Below are positions 14,751-51,178 of a stretch of 64,000 nt of DNA, piece after piece; the first letter of the stretch is position 1, and each line of letters opens with the position of its first letter. The translations under genes and the position numbers were made by a program. Under the pieces are notes generated by a model, which saw only the letters and a program-made list of their open reading frames with translations, was not told where the DNA came from and ran no database searches. Source of the stretch: Candidatus Woesearchaeota archaeon (GTDB taxonomy: Archaea; Nanobdellota; Nanobdellia; Woesearchaeales; ARS49); contig JACQNC010000006.1 in the NCBI GenBank assembly GCA_016203225.1, positions 8,552-72,551 on the forward strand, written 5' to 3'.

Positions 14751-14824
14751 GGGGCTGTCTGCTAACTTGGTTAGGCTTCCTGGCTTGGGACCAGGTGATC
14801 CCGGTTCGAATCCGGGCAGCCCCA
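14751..14824 (+). tRNA. tRNA-Pro (anticodon TGG)
   Basis: Acceptor GGGGCTG/CAGCCCC plus discriminator A. Anticodon arm CCTGG-CTTGGGA-CCAGG. T arm CCCGG-TTCGAAT-CCGGG. No encoded CCA. Confidence 0.9.
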
Positions 14825-14865
14825 CATGCTGAAGGATACAAACAACAAGCTCATCGGTGATTCTA

Positions 14866-38693: not shown

Positions 38694-38730
38694 TGTCTCA
38701 TCCTCCTTCGTGCATGAAATCCATACTCCA

Positions 38731-38870
38731 CCGCCCGGACACAATCAGAACGGAACGTTCTGATGTGCACGAGAACGCTTGCGTTCTCGTAGCAACCTCG
38801 CACCCTTGGTGCTCGGAGCCCGGACGTTGCATCGACTACAAACCCGAGTTCTCACCCGGATTAACGAATC
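38731..38870 (+). repeat. structured intergenic repeat family, copy E (divergent, hairpin-rich)
   Basis: CCCGGACACAATCAG (38734-38748) parallels CCCGGCACGATTGACG. ACTACAAACC (38835-38844) and GAGTTCTCACCCGG (38846-38859) parallel copy A. Hairpins CAGAACG-gaa-CGTTCTG (38746-38762) and ACGAGAACG-cttg-CGTTCTCGT (38769-38790) resemble the insertion in copy D. Confidence 0.5.
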
Positions 38871-38872
38871 AA

Positions 38873-38956
38873 CGCCACCGCCCGGATTTGAACCGGGAAA
38901 TCCGTGAGGAAAGTGGATTAGCAATCCACCGCAATACCAGGTTATGCGACGGTGGC
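38873..38956 (-). tRNA. tRNA-Ser (anticodon GCT)
   Basis: Acceptor GCCACCG/CGGTGGC plus discriminator G. Anticodon arm GTGGA-TTGCTAA-TCCAC. Long variable arm. T arm CCCGG-TTCAAAT-CCGGG. Confidence 0.88.
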
Positions 38957-48376: not shown

Positions 48377-49061
48377 GTGATTTCTTCCACACCCGCATTT
48401 GCTGAATTGTGTGGCATCCATGCAGGTGACGGTTGGATATCTTCGTACAATTATGAGATTGGTTACGGAACGGCAACGTACGAAGCTCCGTATTTCCTGT
48501 ATGTCATGAATCTGTATCAAGAATGCTTACCATTGAAAGAAAATATCAGGATCTTATGGCGAAGAGCGATTGAATTGAGAATACAATCCAAGGAATGCCA
48601 GCAGATTCTTCAGGAAGCGGGGTTTCCGCGGGGCAGCAAGCTCGACCATCTACGGATTCCTGCATTTGTTTGGTCGAAACCTGAATATTTACGCAGATTT
48701 CTGCGAGGCGTGATGGATACTGATGGCCACGTGCATTGGAGGAAAAGTGTCAACCGCAAGTACTTGGTTCTGACTTGGACGACTGCATCAGACGCATTTG
48801 CTAGCGACATCGTTCGTGCGCTGCACGTGCTGGATCTGTGCGCCCATGAGCAAACGTTCATTCCGCGATACAAAGACCGCATAAGAAGGCGTCGGGTACA
48901 CTGCATCTCCATCAGTAGAAAGAGCGATGTCGTATTCTACTTGAGACATATAGGATTCAAAAATCCGCGAAGATGGGAACAAGTTTTACGAAACAAAGAG
49001 GAATTGCTCAGATACAACACCGCAAACCTTTTTAAGCAAACCCCGGAATTCTCGACGTTAC

Positions 49062-49084
<23 letters not shown>
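48377..49084 (+). CDS. free-standing double-motif LAGLIDADG homing-endonuclease-like protein
   Basis: Two LAGLIDADG-type motifs, LCGIHAGDGW and FLRGVMDTDGHV. GTG start with TATA AAATATAAAAAC about 29 nt upstream. AT-richer than the flanks. The last 23 nt run into tRNA-Val. Confidence 0.65.
49029..49036 (+). promoter_or_regulatory. TATA box (TTTTTAAG) for tRNA-Val, inside the LAGLIDADG ORF
   Basis: Centre is about 30 nt upstream of the tRNA 5' end. Confidence 0.5.
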
Positions 49085-49133
<49 letters not shown>

Positions 49134-49136
49134 TCG

Positions 49137-49739
49137 ATGTTCAAGAACCGCGCCGATGCAGGCAGGAAACTCGCGAAACAGCTGAAGGCTGGAAAGAGGA
49201 CCGTCGTTCTTGGCCTGCCTCGCGGCGGCGTCGTAACCGCAGCAGAGGTCGCGAAGGCGCTAAAGGTGCCGCTTGACATCATCGTGACCAAGAAACTCGG
49301 CTACCCGCGCGATCCCGAATATGGCATCGGCGCAGTAGGGCTGAAAACCGACGTCATCGACCGTGCGGGCGTCGATCCTGCGTACATCAAAAGAGAAATC
49401 GCACAACTCCGCAAGCAGGTAAAGGAACGTTACCAGAACCTGCGCGGCAAAAGGAAGATGCCTGCGCTAGCCGGAAAGATGGTCATCATAGTCGATGACG
49501 GCATGGCGACCGGCGCGAGCATGGAAGCCGCGGTCAAGGAAGTAGCGACACAAAAACCTGCAAAGGTGATCGTGGCGGTGCCTGTAGCGCATCCCGACGC
49601 GGTACGCCGCATCGAACGCATCGCGGAAGTCATCTGCCTCGAACAGCCATGGAGATTCCTCGCGGTCGGCGAGTTCTACGAGGACTTCCGTGAAGTCACT
49701 GAAGAGGATGTGAAGAAGTTCTTGAAGAAACCTTTATAA
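49137..49739 (+). CDS. phosphoribosyltransferase-domain protein
   Basis: PRPP-binding loop MVIIVDDGMATGASM. The ATG starts 3 nt after the tRNA-Val discriminator. Confidence 0.75.
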   Translation: MFKNRADAGRKLAKQLKAGKRTVVLGLPRGGVVTAAEVAKALKVPLDIIVTKKLGYPRDPEYGIGAVGLKTDVIDRAGVDPAYIKREIAQLRKQVKERYQNLRGKRKMPALAGKMVIIVDDGMATGASMEAAVKEVATQKPAKVIVAVPVAHPDAVRRIERIAEVICLEQPWRFLAVGEFYEDFREVTEEDVKKFLKKPL

Positions 49740-49740
49740 G
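49733..49740 (+). promoter_or_regulatory. TATA box (TTTATAAG) upstream of the tRNA-like minihelix and tRNA-Pro(CGG)
   Basis: It overlaps the PRTase stop codon. Its centre is about 35 nt upstream of 49772. No other TATA-like element lies before tRNA-Pro(CGG). Confidence 0.45.
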
Positions 49741-49771
49741 CAGCCAAACGACCATTTCGATCGCCATATTC

Positions 49772-49820
49772 GGGGCTGTGGTCCACGGCAGAGATGCGCT
49801 CTGCCTAGACCAGCAACCCC
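49772..49820 (+). ncRNA. tRNA-like minihelix / structured leader preceding tRNA-Pro(CGG)
   Basis: GGGGCTGTGGTC (49772-49783) is identical to nt 1-12 of the downstream tRNA. It can pair with GACCAGCAACCCC (49808-49820) around a perfect hairpin GGCAGAG-atgcg-CTCTGCC (49787-49805). Confidence 0.4.
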
Positions 49821-49845
49821 TCGTATCGACTGAAAACCAAAACTC

Positions 49846-49919
49846 GGGGCTGTGGTCTAACTTGGTTATGACTGAAGGTTCGGGACCTTCAAATCCCGGT
49901 TCAAATCCGGGCAGCCTCA
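49846..49919 (+). tRNA. tRNA-Pro (anticodon CGG)
   Basis: Acceptor GGGGCTG/CAGCCTC (one G-U) plus discriminator A. Anticodon arm GAAGG-TTCGGGA-CCTTC. T arm CCCGG-TTCAAAT-CCGGG. Confidence 0.88.
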
Positions 49920-49934
49920 TGCACCGCCGGGGTT

Positions 49935-49963
49935 TCAGGGGCGCGGCGCTAGAGCGCCCCTGA
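49935..49963 (+). other. GC-rich 10-bp hairpin between tRNA-Pro(CGG) and the hydroxylase gene
   Basis: TCAGGGGCGC-ggcgctaga-GCGCCCCTGA. Confidence 0.5.
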
Positions 49964-49981: not shown

Positions 49982-50611
49982 ATGATCAATCCGCGCTATC
50001 TCCAAACGACAGTCCTCGCACGCCTGCGGAAACGGTACGCTGCGAACAAACCCTTTCCCCATGCGCAGCTCAAGGACTTCTTCGATGTGAAACAACTCCG
50101 CAAAGTCAAACACGCTCTGCTGAACGAGCGATTCGTCGAAGCGGAAGCGGACCTTTTCTCATTCCAGCAGTGCGATGATCTGAAGCACAGCAAGAACCGG
50201 ACACTGCGAGAATTCCGTTCATTCCTGCGTTCGCCGCGATTCCTATCATTGCTCTCCTACATCACCGGCGAGAACCTCTCGGCCACGATCGACATCTCAG
50301 GCTTCATCTACGACGACACCGACCACCTGCTTCCGCATGACGACAAGCTCGAAGGCAGGAAGCTCGCATTCGTGCTCAATCTTTCAACCATGACCGCAAA
50401 AGATGGCGGGCAACTTGACTTGTTCAAAGGAAACAATGTCGCGAAATCCTATCTGCCCGCGTTCAACTCTCTCGTCGTCTTCACGGTCAAGCCCGGAACG
50501 ACGATGCACCAGGTGCGCGAGGTGCTGACAGACGAGAAACGCATCACGCTTGCGGGGTGGATACACGGGAACGAACGTTCCCGGGTGCATGAGAACCGGA
50601 GGTCTGAGTAG
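49982..50611 (+). CDS. 2OG-Fe(II) oxygenase, OGFOD1/Tpa1/Ofd1-type prolyl hydroxylase catalytic domain
   Basis: DHLLPHDDKLEGRKLAFVLNL (HxD), GGQLDLF, NSLVVFTVKPGTTMHQVREVLTDEKRITLAGWIHG. As I recall the family signature, this closely parallels the OGFOD1 N-terminal domain. Confidence 0.7.
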   Translation: MINPRYLQTTVLARLRKRYAANKPFPHAQLKDFFDVKQLRKVKHALLNERFVEAEADLFSFQQCDDLKHSKNRTLREFRSFLRSPRFLSLLSYITGENLSATIDISGFIYDDTDHLLPHDDKLEGRKLAFVLNLSTMTAKDGGQLDLFKGNNVAKSYLPAFNSLVVFTVKPGTTMHQVREVLTDEKRITLAGWIHGNERSRVHENRRSE

Positions 50612-50614
50612 CAC

Positions 50615-51178
50615 ATGGTTAATCTCTCGGACTGGATAAACCAGACATACCTCGACAAAGGCGTCGTCGAGGAGATGCGCGCGGTCTTCGCGAAGAACAG
50701 GCAATTATTGCTTCCCGACTTCCTGTGCAAGGACTCCTACAAGCATGCGATGCGACTCGCCCGATCCGCGGCGTTCAAACGCGCGTATGTCCCTGACCAG
50801 ATGTCGTGCGCGTTCGCGATGCGGCAAGACGCGTTCCTGCGCTTCCTCGCTTCAGAGCGATTCGCGTCATATGTTCAACTAATCACAGGCACGAAATCTG
50901 GAAAACGAGCGTTCTACACCGAATTGCGCGCAAGGGACTACACAGTCATCAAGGACCTCCCCCAGACATGGAAACTCCTCACGCACCTCTTCCTGTCCCC
51001 CTGGAACGCCCACTGGGGCGGACGCATGATCTTCCGCGACGCCGAAGGCAACCACACGCACAGTCCGCCGGCGCAAAACACGTTGCTGTTGACCGGGAAC
51101 AGAAAGGGGTTGCACGGATACGTCGAATACGTCAACCATCACGCTGGAAAGAGAACGACCATCACCGCGAACGTTTAG
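50615..51178 (+). CDS. OGFOD1/Tpa1 C-terminal (non-catalytic DSBH) domain-like protein
   Basis: Begins LSDWINQTYLDKGVVEEMRAVF...LLLPDFL, resembling the WINPxYL start of the Ofd1 C-terminal domain. No HxD triad is seen. It starts 3 nt after the upstream stop. Confidence 0.55.
   Translation: MVNLSDWINQTYLDKGVVEEMRAVFAKNRQLLLPDFLCKDSYKHAMRLARSAAFKRAYVPDQMSCAFAMRQDAFLRFLASERFASYVQLITGTKSGKRAFYTELRARDYTVIKDLPQTWKLLTHLFLSPWNAHWGGRMIFRDAEGNHTHSPPAQNTLLLTGNRKGLHGYVEYVNHHAGKRTTITANV

Follow-up and report, generated by a model that had tools for sequence, protein, structure and literature searches.

A hairpin made of direct and inverted copies of the tRNA-Pro(CGG) 5′ end, upstream of that gene in a Woesearchaeota archaeon and its relatives: a possible recombination footprint

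In a Candidatus Woesearchaeota archaeon, the gene for tRNA-Pro(CGG) is preceded by a hairpin that is built from the beginning of the gene itself, which is present upstream once as a direct copy and once as an inverted copy. We analysed this element within 64,000 nucleotides (nt) of contig JACQNC010000006.1 (assembly GCA_016203225.1, positions 8,552 to 72,551, forward strand), a stretch that we refer to as the window, and in orthologous loci of relatives that were reached via flanking proteins, contig look-ups, and a single pattern scan of metagenomes and another of genomes. The same architecture is found in five alleles, which come from four related lineages of groundwater archaea, and the order of parts is common to all five: promoter, direct copy (copy 1), apical hairpin, inverted copy, linker, and tRNA. 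Because the whole arrangement recurs in four other alleles of relatives, the observed feature exceeds chance. The hairpin is both real and unusual, and any function of it is putative.

Our preferred explanation, held tentatively and with a little less than even confidence, is that the element is a recombination footprint, a partial tRNA duplication, which is now conserved as a self-sequestering transcribed 5′ leader of tRNA-Pro(CGG). A short DNA segment would have recombined into the tRNA gene at about nucleotide 12/13, as when integrative elements and other recombination events that target tRNA genes give rise to partial tRNA duplicates, leaving the original promoter and the original 5′ end (copy 1) upstream and bringing in a replacement 5′ end (copy 2). 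Transcription would begin a few bases before copy 1, and since the element would lie inside the transcription unit, the tRNA transcript would carry a leader of ~80–110 nt. Copy 1 and the inverted copy would fold together once made, a pairing that would keep the decoy 5′ strand out of the competition for the acceptor and D stems, and would stop the antisense strand from blocking the real 5′ end; the cloverleaf would fold next, and RNase P would cut at +1 and discard the leader. Each copy would be harmful without the other, and this mutual dependence would explain why both copies are conserved while the rest of the leader drifts.

Anatomy and conservation of the element

The two direct copies form an exact 14-nt repeat, TCGGGGCTGTGGTC, of which the second copy comprises the first 12 nt of tRNA-Pro(CGG) and the two preceding bases (Table 1). 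It is the longest close direct repeat of the 64-kb window, in which repeats of at least 12 nt within 150 nt number 6, compared with 0.72 in shuffles. The tRNA, called by ARAGORN and scoring 57.1 bits with the Rfam tRNA model, is complete and contiguous over 74 nt, without an intron and without an encoded CCA. Copy 1 pairs with the 3′ arm, GACCAGCAACCCC, around a perfect 7-bp hairpin (GGCAGAG-ATGCG-CTCTGCC); the fold reaches −29 kcal/mol (z = −4.0 to −4.3), and none of 200 shuffles was as stable. The 3′ arm is in turn an inverted duplicate of tRNA nucleotides 1–12 (GGGGCTGTGGTC), from which its reverse complement differs in the window by one substitution and a 1-nt insertion. The order is therefore direct copy, inverted copy, and then the tRNA's own copy. 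An earlier note on this DNA had described the repeat, the tRNA, the hairpin with its 3′ arm and a TATA-like box; all of these coordinates were correct on recheck, and the exact repeat and the stable fold bear out its minihelix. It had missed that the 3′ arm is an inverted copy, that the element is polymorphic, and that the locus holds other tRNA-end duplications.

Table 1. Features of the tRNA-Pro(CGG) locus and of other parts of the window discussed in the text (window positions)
Feature	Position	Strand	Remark
Archaeal-type promoter (TFB-recognition element (BRE)/TATA-like AAACCTTTATAAGCA)	49728..49742	+	resembles tRNA-Val promoter
TATA-like box TTTATAAG	49733..49740		within AAACCTTTATAAGCA
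Predicted transcription start region	49760..49766	+	~30 nt past TATA first T; inferred from spacing
Copy 1 (TCGGGGCTGTGGTC), direct copy of tRNA-Pro(CGG) −2 to +12	49770..49783	+	5′ strand of lower stem
Internal loop (CAC / TA) and apical 7-bp hairpin	49784..49807	+	from folding; hairpin 49787–49805
Inverted copy GACCAGCAACCCC	49808..49820	+	3′ strand of lower stem; reverse complement GGGGTTGCTGGTC
A-rich unstructured linker	49821..49843	+	opens with conserved TC; followed by TC before tRNA
tRNA-Pro(CGG)	49846..49919	+	ARAGORN, Rfam; copy 2 is 49844–49857
tRNA-Val(CAC) promoter AAACCTTTTTAAGCA	49024..49038
Phosphoribosyltransferase open reading frame (ORF)	49137..49739		upstream of the element
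LAGLIDADG-type ORF	48377..49084
Inverted repeat TCAGGGGCGC...GCGCCCCTGA	49935..49963		perfect, 10 bp
Tpa1/Ofd1-like 2OG-Fe(II) (2-oxoglutarate/iron) prolyl hydroxylase	49982..51178		directly downstream of tRNA-Pro
tRNA-Pro(UGG)	14751..14825
tRNA-Ser(GCT) 3′-end repeat TCCGGGCGGTGG	38728..38739, 38875..38886	−	12 nt
Hairpins between the tRNA-Ser(GCT) repeats	38744..38764, 38769..38790		perfect, 9 and 10 bp

The alleles are the window, as reference locus; L001, which is syntenic and has a flanking phosphoribosyltransferase 85% identical; L007 (also seen as L005 and L008; assembly GCA_964362535.1); L019 (also L020; a 969-kb contig of GCA_964550175.1); and L024 (also L023), which represents a second strain of the species of L007. 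Run X1 yielded two further variants as partial sequences only, and these stand outside this set. The minihelix folds alike in all five, at −24 to −39 kcal/mol (z −2.9 to −7.1), and the earlier note, which had made its case depend on conservation of the minihelix at orthologous tRNA-Pro loci, is upheld in this respect. Copy 1 agrees with the tRNA at all 12 positions in four alleles; that of L024, in which G1 and G2 are missing, agrees at 10 of 12. The reverse complements of the 3′ arms are GGGGTTGCTGGTC in the window and L019, GGGGCTTGGTC in L007, GGGGTTGGGGTC in L001, and GGGGCTGCTGGTC in L024 (12 of 12 to the tRNA plus one inserted base), all of which correspond to GGGGCTGTGGTC with an indel or a few substitutions. 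Direct repeats measure 13–15 nt in the window, L001, L007, and L019; across the five alleles the copies are separated by 48–84 nt (62–98 nt from start to start), and the linker, including its final TC, measures 13–48 nt. TC stands before both copies in most alleles and after CCCC in all. The apical stems (GGCAGAG/CTCTGCC, GCCGAACG/CGTTCGGC, GC..GAACC/GGTTC..GC, GGACG/CGTCC, and TGCCGAAT/ATTCGGCA) are unrelated in sequence, and the middle of the lower stem is a 1×1 mismatch plus bulge, a 4×4 loop, or a 2×1 loop, depending on the allele.

Mean pairwise identity is 0.93 for copy 1, 0.84 for the inverted copy, and 0.94 for the tRNA, compared with 0.54 for the bases from TATA to copy 1, 0.56 for the inter-copy segment (internal loop and apical hairpin), and 0.47 for the linker, where random sequences give 0.49. 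From this pattern, both copies seem to be under constraint or homogenised, and the remainder seems to be free apart from the need to pair. The sequence of the apical hairpin differs in each allele and its pairing is always kept, with 7 of 9 pairs changing on both sides. Of the apical stem cells, 94.7% are paired, compared with 19–46% when the partners are slid, and the covariation score was reached by none of 500 shuffles; with five sequences, this covariation is suggestive and short of statistical proof.

These data bear on the view that the element is a neutral and unconstrained relic, namely a recent duplication scar that has yet to decay and whose fold is incidental. The tRNA may be dispensable, given that wobble decoding may allow tRNA-Pro(UGG), which is also encoded in the window, to cover tRNA-Pro(CGG). 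In addition, partial tRNA duplications are common by-products of recombination (PMC9897764). Nevertheless, we regard a neutral relic as very improbable, and the reading was already disfavoured: identity in the leader, linker, and hairpin has fallen to the random level, which is not so for the two copies, and the pairing of the hairpin has been kept through complete turnover of its sequence.

Constraint may also go beyond pairing. The unpaired CAC, TA, and AGCAA are identical in the window and L019, whose flanking proteins are only ~65% identical, and because unpaired bases of the lower stem are conserved too, there is room for the decoy, the processing platform, or the independent small RNA that the earlier note had proposed. 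As a dedicated functional RNA, the element would mimic with its lower stem the acceptor/D-stem end of tRNA-Pro for a tRNA-binding protein or for RNase P, and would act in cis as a processing platform or be released as a small RNA of ~50–110 nt. We consider this unlikely. The invariance of the lower stem between such diverged lineages speaks for it, as does the combination of a variable, covarying apical hairpin with a conserved base, which is typical of protein-binding RNA motifs, and so do the recurrent TC dinucleotides. On the other hand, Rfam holds no family for the minihelix at gathering thresholds or at E ≤ 10 (the sole hit, at 5.8 bits, is meaningless), and a descriptor scan of both strands found one instance per locus and no second instance in the window or in the relatives' loci. 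The variable middle of the lower stem and the loss of G1 and G2 in L024 also count against a dedicated mimic, and sister lineages manage without the element. The minihelix also has no T arm, the part that RNase P and most tRNA enzymes use.

Other identities were considered and rejected. The Rfam search and the descriptor scan argue, respectively, against a known RNA family and a repeated element family. K-turn, C/D, and H/ACA motifs are not conserved among the alleles: RUGAUGA is found in none of them, CUGA or ACA occur only sporadically, and there is no Rfam hit for a C/D or H/ACA guide RNA. A tandem duplication of a 74-nt unit fails because the 74 nt before copy 1 are unlike the 74 nt after it, and a degenerate full tRNA copy fails because the interior is unlike a D loop, anticodon arm, or T arm.

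Promoter position and the leader

From the first T of the TATA-like box there are 39 nt to G1 of copy 1 and 113 nt to the real tRNA-Pro(CGG), and the corresponding distance to +1 at the window's six other tRNAs, counted on the sequences, is 33–42 nt. In all five alleles a CCTTTATAA or TTTATAA box is located 33–46 nt upstream of copy 1. No comparable A/T-rich box was seen between the minihelix and the tRNA when the window sequence was read, which agrees with the earlier claim that the sole TATA-like element is placed before the minihelix. The promoter AAACCTTTATAAGCA equals that of tRNA-Val(CAC) at 14 of 15 positions, and the stop codon of the upstream phosphoribosyltransferase ORF falls within it. 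The genes and promoters of the window are archaeal in type, and the closest named homologues come from Woesearchaeota or Nanoarchaeia, which makes a DPANN-type archaeon likely; the DNA was obtained from a groundwater metagenome. The start region in Table 1 is predicted from the usual archaeal distance between TATA and start and from the spacing seen at the six other tRNAs.

Since the promoter is located 33–46 nt upstream of copy 1, where the +1 of a tRNA sits elsewhere, copy 1 looks like the original gene start. The footprint reading follows from this arrangement, in which the outer copy keeps the promoter at its normal distance and the inner copy lies in a working gene, as in archaeal integration cases. 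Leaderless tRNA transcription of the RNase P-free kind known from Nanoarchaeum was rejected because the TATA-to-tRNA spacing varies from 33 to 42 nt; such variable spacing leads us to expect short leaders and an RNase P-type activity. As for the long structured leader of ~80 nt suggested earlier, the promoter, copy 1, hairpin, linker, and tRNA conserved in five alleles back it, and we infer its transcription. For annotation, the locus is a warning that the promoter of tRNA-Pro(CGG) lies more than 100 nt upstream of the tRNA.

Folding models of the leader together with the tRNA give a divided answer on sequestration, supportive in three alleles and contradictory in two. When copy 1 is destroyed, the probability of the correct acceptor stem falls to 0.002–0.024 in four of the five alleles, and when the inverted copy is destroyed, copy 1 takes the acceptor strand in the window and L001. 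Among RNA runs, none containing the window locus was found. Two runs with a guessed RNA label hold low-depth contigs of an L007-like allele that extend from within the minihelix through linker and tRNA into the 3′ flank, and one of them represents a further allele ending ...CAACCCCTCA; these contigs are too weak to use. A true metatranscriptome contig begins 6 nt before the tRNA. All of these may reflect DNA carry-over or single reads and have little weight.

An intron would also account for a promoter placed before copy 1. The earlier note had offered a relic of an intron or of a duplication within the D-arm; the duplication is nearest to the comparative data, and the intron is not supported, given the missing splice motif, the ARAGORN models, and the intact tRNA. 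If there were a non-canonical intron or alternative 5′ exon, copy 1 would form the genuine 5′ end of the tRNA, and the archaeal splicing endonuclease would excise 74 nt (49784–49857). Their removal would regenerate the same tRNA, the promoter is correctly placed for copy 1, the lineage has tRNA introns, as in tRNA-Pro(CGG) of L010 and L018 (near position 37–39), and a ‘swapped’ fold with copy 1 as acceptor strand is energetically competitive. Even so, we find this reading hardly tenable. At equivalent splice-site pairs of the five alleles there is no bulge-helix-bulge (BHB) or relaxed motif: where the central helix has 4 of 4 pairs, the flanking helices have at most 1 bp and mostly 0, and no site pair joins a central 4-bp helix to a flanking helix of at least 2 bp. 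The positive control for this template check, on the intron-bearing L010 and L018, was only partly clean. Moreover, the central helix would have to form between a sequence and its own copy, ARAGORN gives only the contiguous tRNA when introns are allowed, the complete downstream tRNA needs no splicing, and the spacing, which varies over 63–98 nt, comes with no conserved junction structure. With the template check and ARAGORN both negative, intron and split tRNA were rejected alike.

Recombination at the tRNA-Val/tRNA-Pro locus

Several relatives have the tRNA without the element. In L018 and L010, tRNA-Val is followed after 3–4 nt by the intron-bearing tRNA-Pro(CGG), and in L021 and L022 it is followed after 1 nt by an intron-less, leaderless tRNA-Pro(CGG) that is one base from that of L007. 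In L006, a Woesearchaeota genome, the tRNA begins with the same 27 nt and no copy lies upstream. In carriers, the gene between tRNA-Val and tRNA-Pro differs by lineage, being a phosphoribosyltransferase, a 138-aa ORF, or a 208-aa ORF. The 3′ ends are also duplicated in places. In L021 and L022, the tRNA-Pro 3′ end is repeated directly (27 nt) 64 nt downstream, and an inverted copy, ATTTGAACAGGG, pairs with the outer 3′ repeat around an 8-bp hairpin; the structure is a mirror image of the 5′ element, and a T-run terminator lies past the outer copy. In L023 it is the 3′ end of tRNA-Val that is repeated, over 18 nt; this repeat is missing in L007, and its outer copy lies in a long-range helix. 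Between L007 and L024, the flanks are ~99% identical on both sides, and 87 nt of leader in one are replaced by 113 unalignable nt in the other; four runs, belonging to at least three studies, contain the second of these alleles. The grouping of allele types disagrees with the species tree, with CAC...TA common to the window, L019, and L007 and a GCCGAA...TTCGGC hairpin common to L001 and L024. On these comparisons, the tRNA-Val/tRNA-Pro locus is recombination-prone.

Such differences give weight to a DNA-level reading, in which the element is a recombination site or a miniature mobile cassette (62–98 bp) that a recombinase in trans would insert at tRNA ends, perhaps as a folded single-stranded DNA substrate like integron attC or CTX-phage attP, and in which repeated recombination keeps the copies identical. 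The replacement of a whole leader between nearly identical flanks at the strain level fits this, as do the incongruence of allele types with the species tree, the mirror-image architecture at the 3′ ends of tRNA-Pro (L021) and tRNA-Val (L023), the different adjoining cargo gene in each lineage, and a copy identical to the tRNA in four of five alleles. We still think it quite unlikely. The neighbouring ORFs tested include no recombinase gene, and among the genes called within a few kb on each side there is no integron integrase or site array, with one site per locus. Neither box of the attC consensus, RYYYAAC (R″) or GTTRRRY (R′), is matched at the base of the stem when the five alleles are read (CAGCAAC, CCCAACC, CAAGCCC, and CAGCAGC). 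The inter-repeat segment lacks inverted repeats at its two ends, CACGGCAGAG... and the reverse complement of ...AAACCAAAAC showing no match in the window; repeat lengths are unequal (13–15, 18, and 27 nt); and the variable genes lie outside the repeat pair, with none between. A more specific proposal is that the element and its 3′-end mirror images are a new miniature insertion cassette or folded recombination site (~60–110 bp) of DPANN-type archaea that targets tRNA ends and is exchanged horizontally by a trans-acting recombinase, each cassette bringing a replacement tRNA end and an inverted copy with a target-mimicking stem. We judge this a long shot.

Two related candidates were rejected. 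A casposon-type target duplication or miniature inverted-repeat transposable element (MITE) is contradicted by the missing terminal inverted repeats and the varying repeat lengths. For a viral or plasmid origin, two scans of IMG/VR, one with the pattern of copy, hairpin, and inverted copy and one with the tRNA 5′ end, gave only chance matches in unrelated coding sequence, a result that also counts against the DNA-level reading.

Other features of the locus are recorded here in their own right. Between L023 (1534–1720) and L007 (4688–4760), the tRNA-Val anticodon stems differ while the next gene is ~99% identical, and one strain has no LAGLIDADG ORF and has a 110-nt insertion bounded by the 18-nt tRNA 3′-end repeat; the tRNA surroundings of the two form a mosaic recombination pattern. 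Introns were found in relatives in tRNA-Pro(CGG), tRNA-Val or tRNA-Leu (ARAGORN), and tRNA-Arg(CCG) (L010 3877–4107, L018 1036–1234, L021 4724–4842), and tRNA-Pro(CGG), tRNA-Val, and tRNA-Arg of the window lineage have none, so intron gain or loss is active in the clade. In the window, tRNA-Val(CAC) ends at 49133 and the phosphoribosyltransferase ATG (49137) follows 3 nt on, with no promoter between, and the LAGLIDADG-type ORF extends at its 3′ end across the tRNA-Val promoter and 23 nt into the tRNA. This arrangement (49062–49139) suggests a tRNA-mRNA co-transcript and a homing-endonuclease-like gene set against a tRNA. Downstream of tRNA-Pro(CGG), the inverted repeat TCAGGGGCGC...GCGCCCCTGA begins 16 nt past the tRNA in a spacer of ~60 nt; L001 is without this spacer, its next ORF starting 1–2 nt after the tRNA. 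The Tpa1/Ofd1-like hydroxylase that follows is apparently split, with adjacent catalytic and C-terminal Ofd1_CTDD ORFs, and the pairing is kept in all relatives. In L006 (7428–7580), tRNA-Pro(CGG) abuts tRNA-Pro(GGG) with zero spacer. Elsewhere in the window, the 3′ end of tRNA-Ser(GCT) is repeated ~130 nt downstream, with two perfect hairpins between the repeats (Table 1), possibly as a further case of such tRNA-end duplication. The palindrome GAAC[G/C]-N1-6-[G/C]GTTC is present 12 times in the window (e.g., 38748, 38773, 50569, and 53428), compared with 1.6 expected and a maximum of 7 in 200 shuffles; 4 of the 12 are in extended perfect hairpins, and the leader apical hairpins of L001 (688) and L007 (5272) contain the motif, which may be protein-binding or terminator-like.

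How far the preferred reading, a recombination footprint kept as a self-folding leader, accounts for the data is limited by several points that weigh against it. The repeats enclose nothing mobile, the flanks examined showed no integrase, and just 48–84 nt separate the copies, compared with 1.8–23 kb and repeats of ~44 bp in documented cases. One would expect a scar to decay, or to drift from the tRNA sequence through covariation, yet copy 1 matches at every position in four alleles, and the unpaired bases shared by the window and L019 suggest a sequence-specific constraint beyond pairing. Because the identity of copy 1 and of these bases exceeds what the model needs, the RNA may have a function that depends on its sequence, or recombination of the DNA may be continuing. 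The distribution of allele types over the species tree also fits horizontal exchange better than simple vertical decay. As for folding, the swapped fold comes within ~2 kcal/mol for three alleles (window, L001, and L007) and is the more stable one by 10 kcal/mol for L019, and wild-type L007 and L019 are predicted to be misfolded at equilibrium; with the swapped fold near-equal or favoured, the sequestration argument depends on co-transcriptional folding. The RNA-type evidence, finally, consists only of low-depth contigs from runs whose RNA label is guessed.

As a rule, partial tRNA genes are regarded as dead footprints that integrated elements leave behind. In the present case, a compact partial tRNA, made of a direct and an inverted 5′-end copy, is kept across lineages inside the putative transcription unit with a covarying fold while its intergenic surroundings are randomised. 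If the preferred reading is true, the locus would be a clean natural case of a recombination scar locked by mutual dependence, and would indicate that the sequence of a leader can be constrained by how the pre-tRNA folds. On a rival reading, the element would be either a novel RNA that mimics a tRNA or a novel small module for recombination at the ends of archaeal tRNA genes, with a bearing on how these genes become disrupted, split, or intron-bearing.

Comparison with known systems

Integration into archaeal tRNA genes is known to leave a partial tRNA copy beside a reconstituted gene, 5′ fragments included (PMC3293823; PMC9897764). For example, Caldiarchaeum has a 5′ tRNA-Thr fragment upstream of the reconstituted gene (PMC3293823), and in Thermococcaceae, 44-bp repeats flank elements of 9–23 kb (PMC9897764). 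As in these att-type cases, the repeat described here is identical to a tRNA end with one copy in an intact gene (window, L001, L007, and L019), the outer copy keeps a flanking signal, and the locus is heterogeneous between close strains and rearranged among relatives (L021, L022, L018, and L010 are without the element, and the L007 and L024 alleles differ). Unlike them, the repeat is only 13–15 nt long, the copies are 62–98 nt apart with no integrase or element gene between them and no integrase domains in the neighbouring ORFs tested, a third, inverted copy is present, and the segment appears to lie inside the transcription unit, conserved with a covarying fold across lineages.

Archaeal BHB introns and split or permuted tRNAs resemble the element in that a tRNA sequence is interrupted and removal of the insert would restore the tRNA, and relatives in the clade carry introns in tRNA-Pro. 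They differ from it in that no BHB or relaxed motif is found here, the downstream tRNA is complete, and the insert holds a second copy of the exon. The attP of CTX phage is a folded-hairpin recombination site. Integron attC sites have been reported from Archaea as well (PMC9668308). With attC and CTX attP the element shares an imperfect inverted repeat, a conserved base, a variable apical part, adjoining variable genes, and one arm that copies the target, whereas attC boxes and an integron-type integrase were not seen in the alleles and loci read, and the variable genes are not bounded by the repeats.

Casposon insertion is described for the tRNA-Pro 3′ end, where it is accompanied by a target-site duplication of 15 bp (PMC5137440). 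The likeness lies in a repeat of ~14–15 bp that overlaps the end of an archaeal tRNA-Pro gene; in contrast, the element is at the 5′ end, without terminal inverted repeats or casposase, and the 3′-end repeats of relatives, at 18 and 27 nt, have no fixed stagger. The t-elements of Haloferax are tRNA-like elements processed by RNase P and tRNase Z. They too are tRNA-derived structures within a longer precursor, but the minihelix lacks both T arm and anticodon arm, and the Rfam tRNA model gives it no score. In our reading of these sequences, the element probably belongs to a known kind, the partial tRNA duplication.

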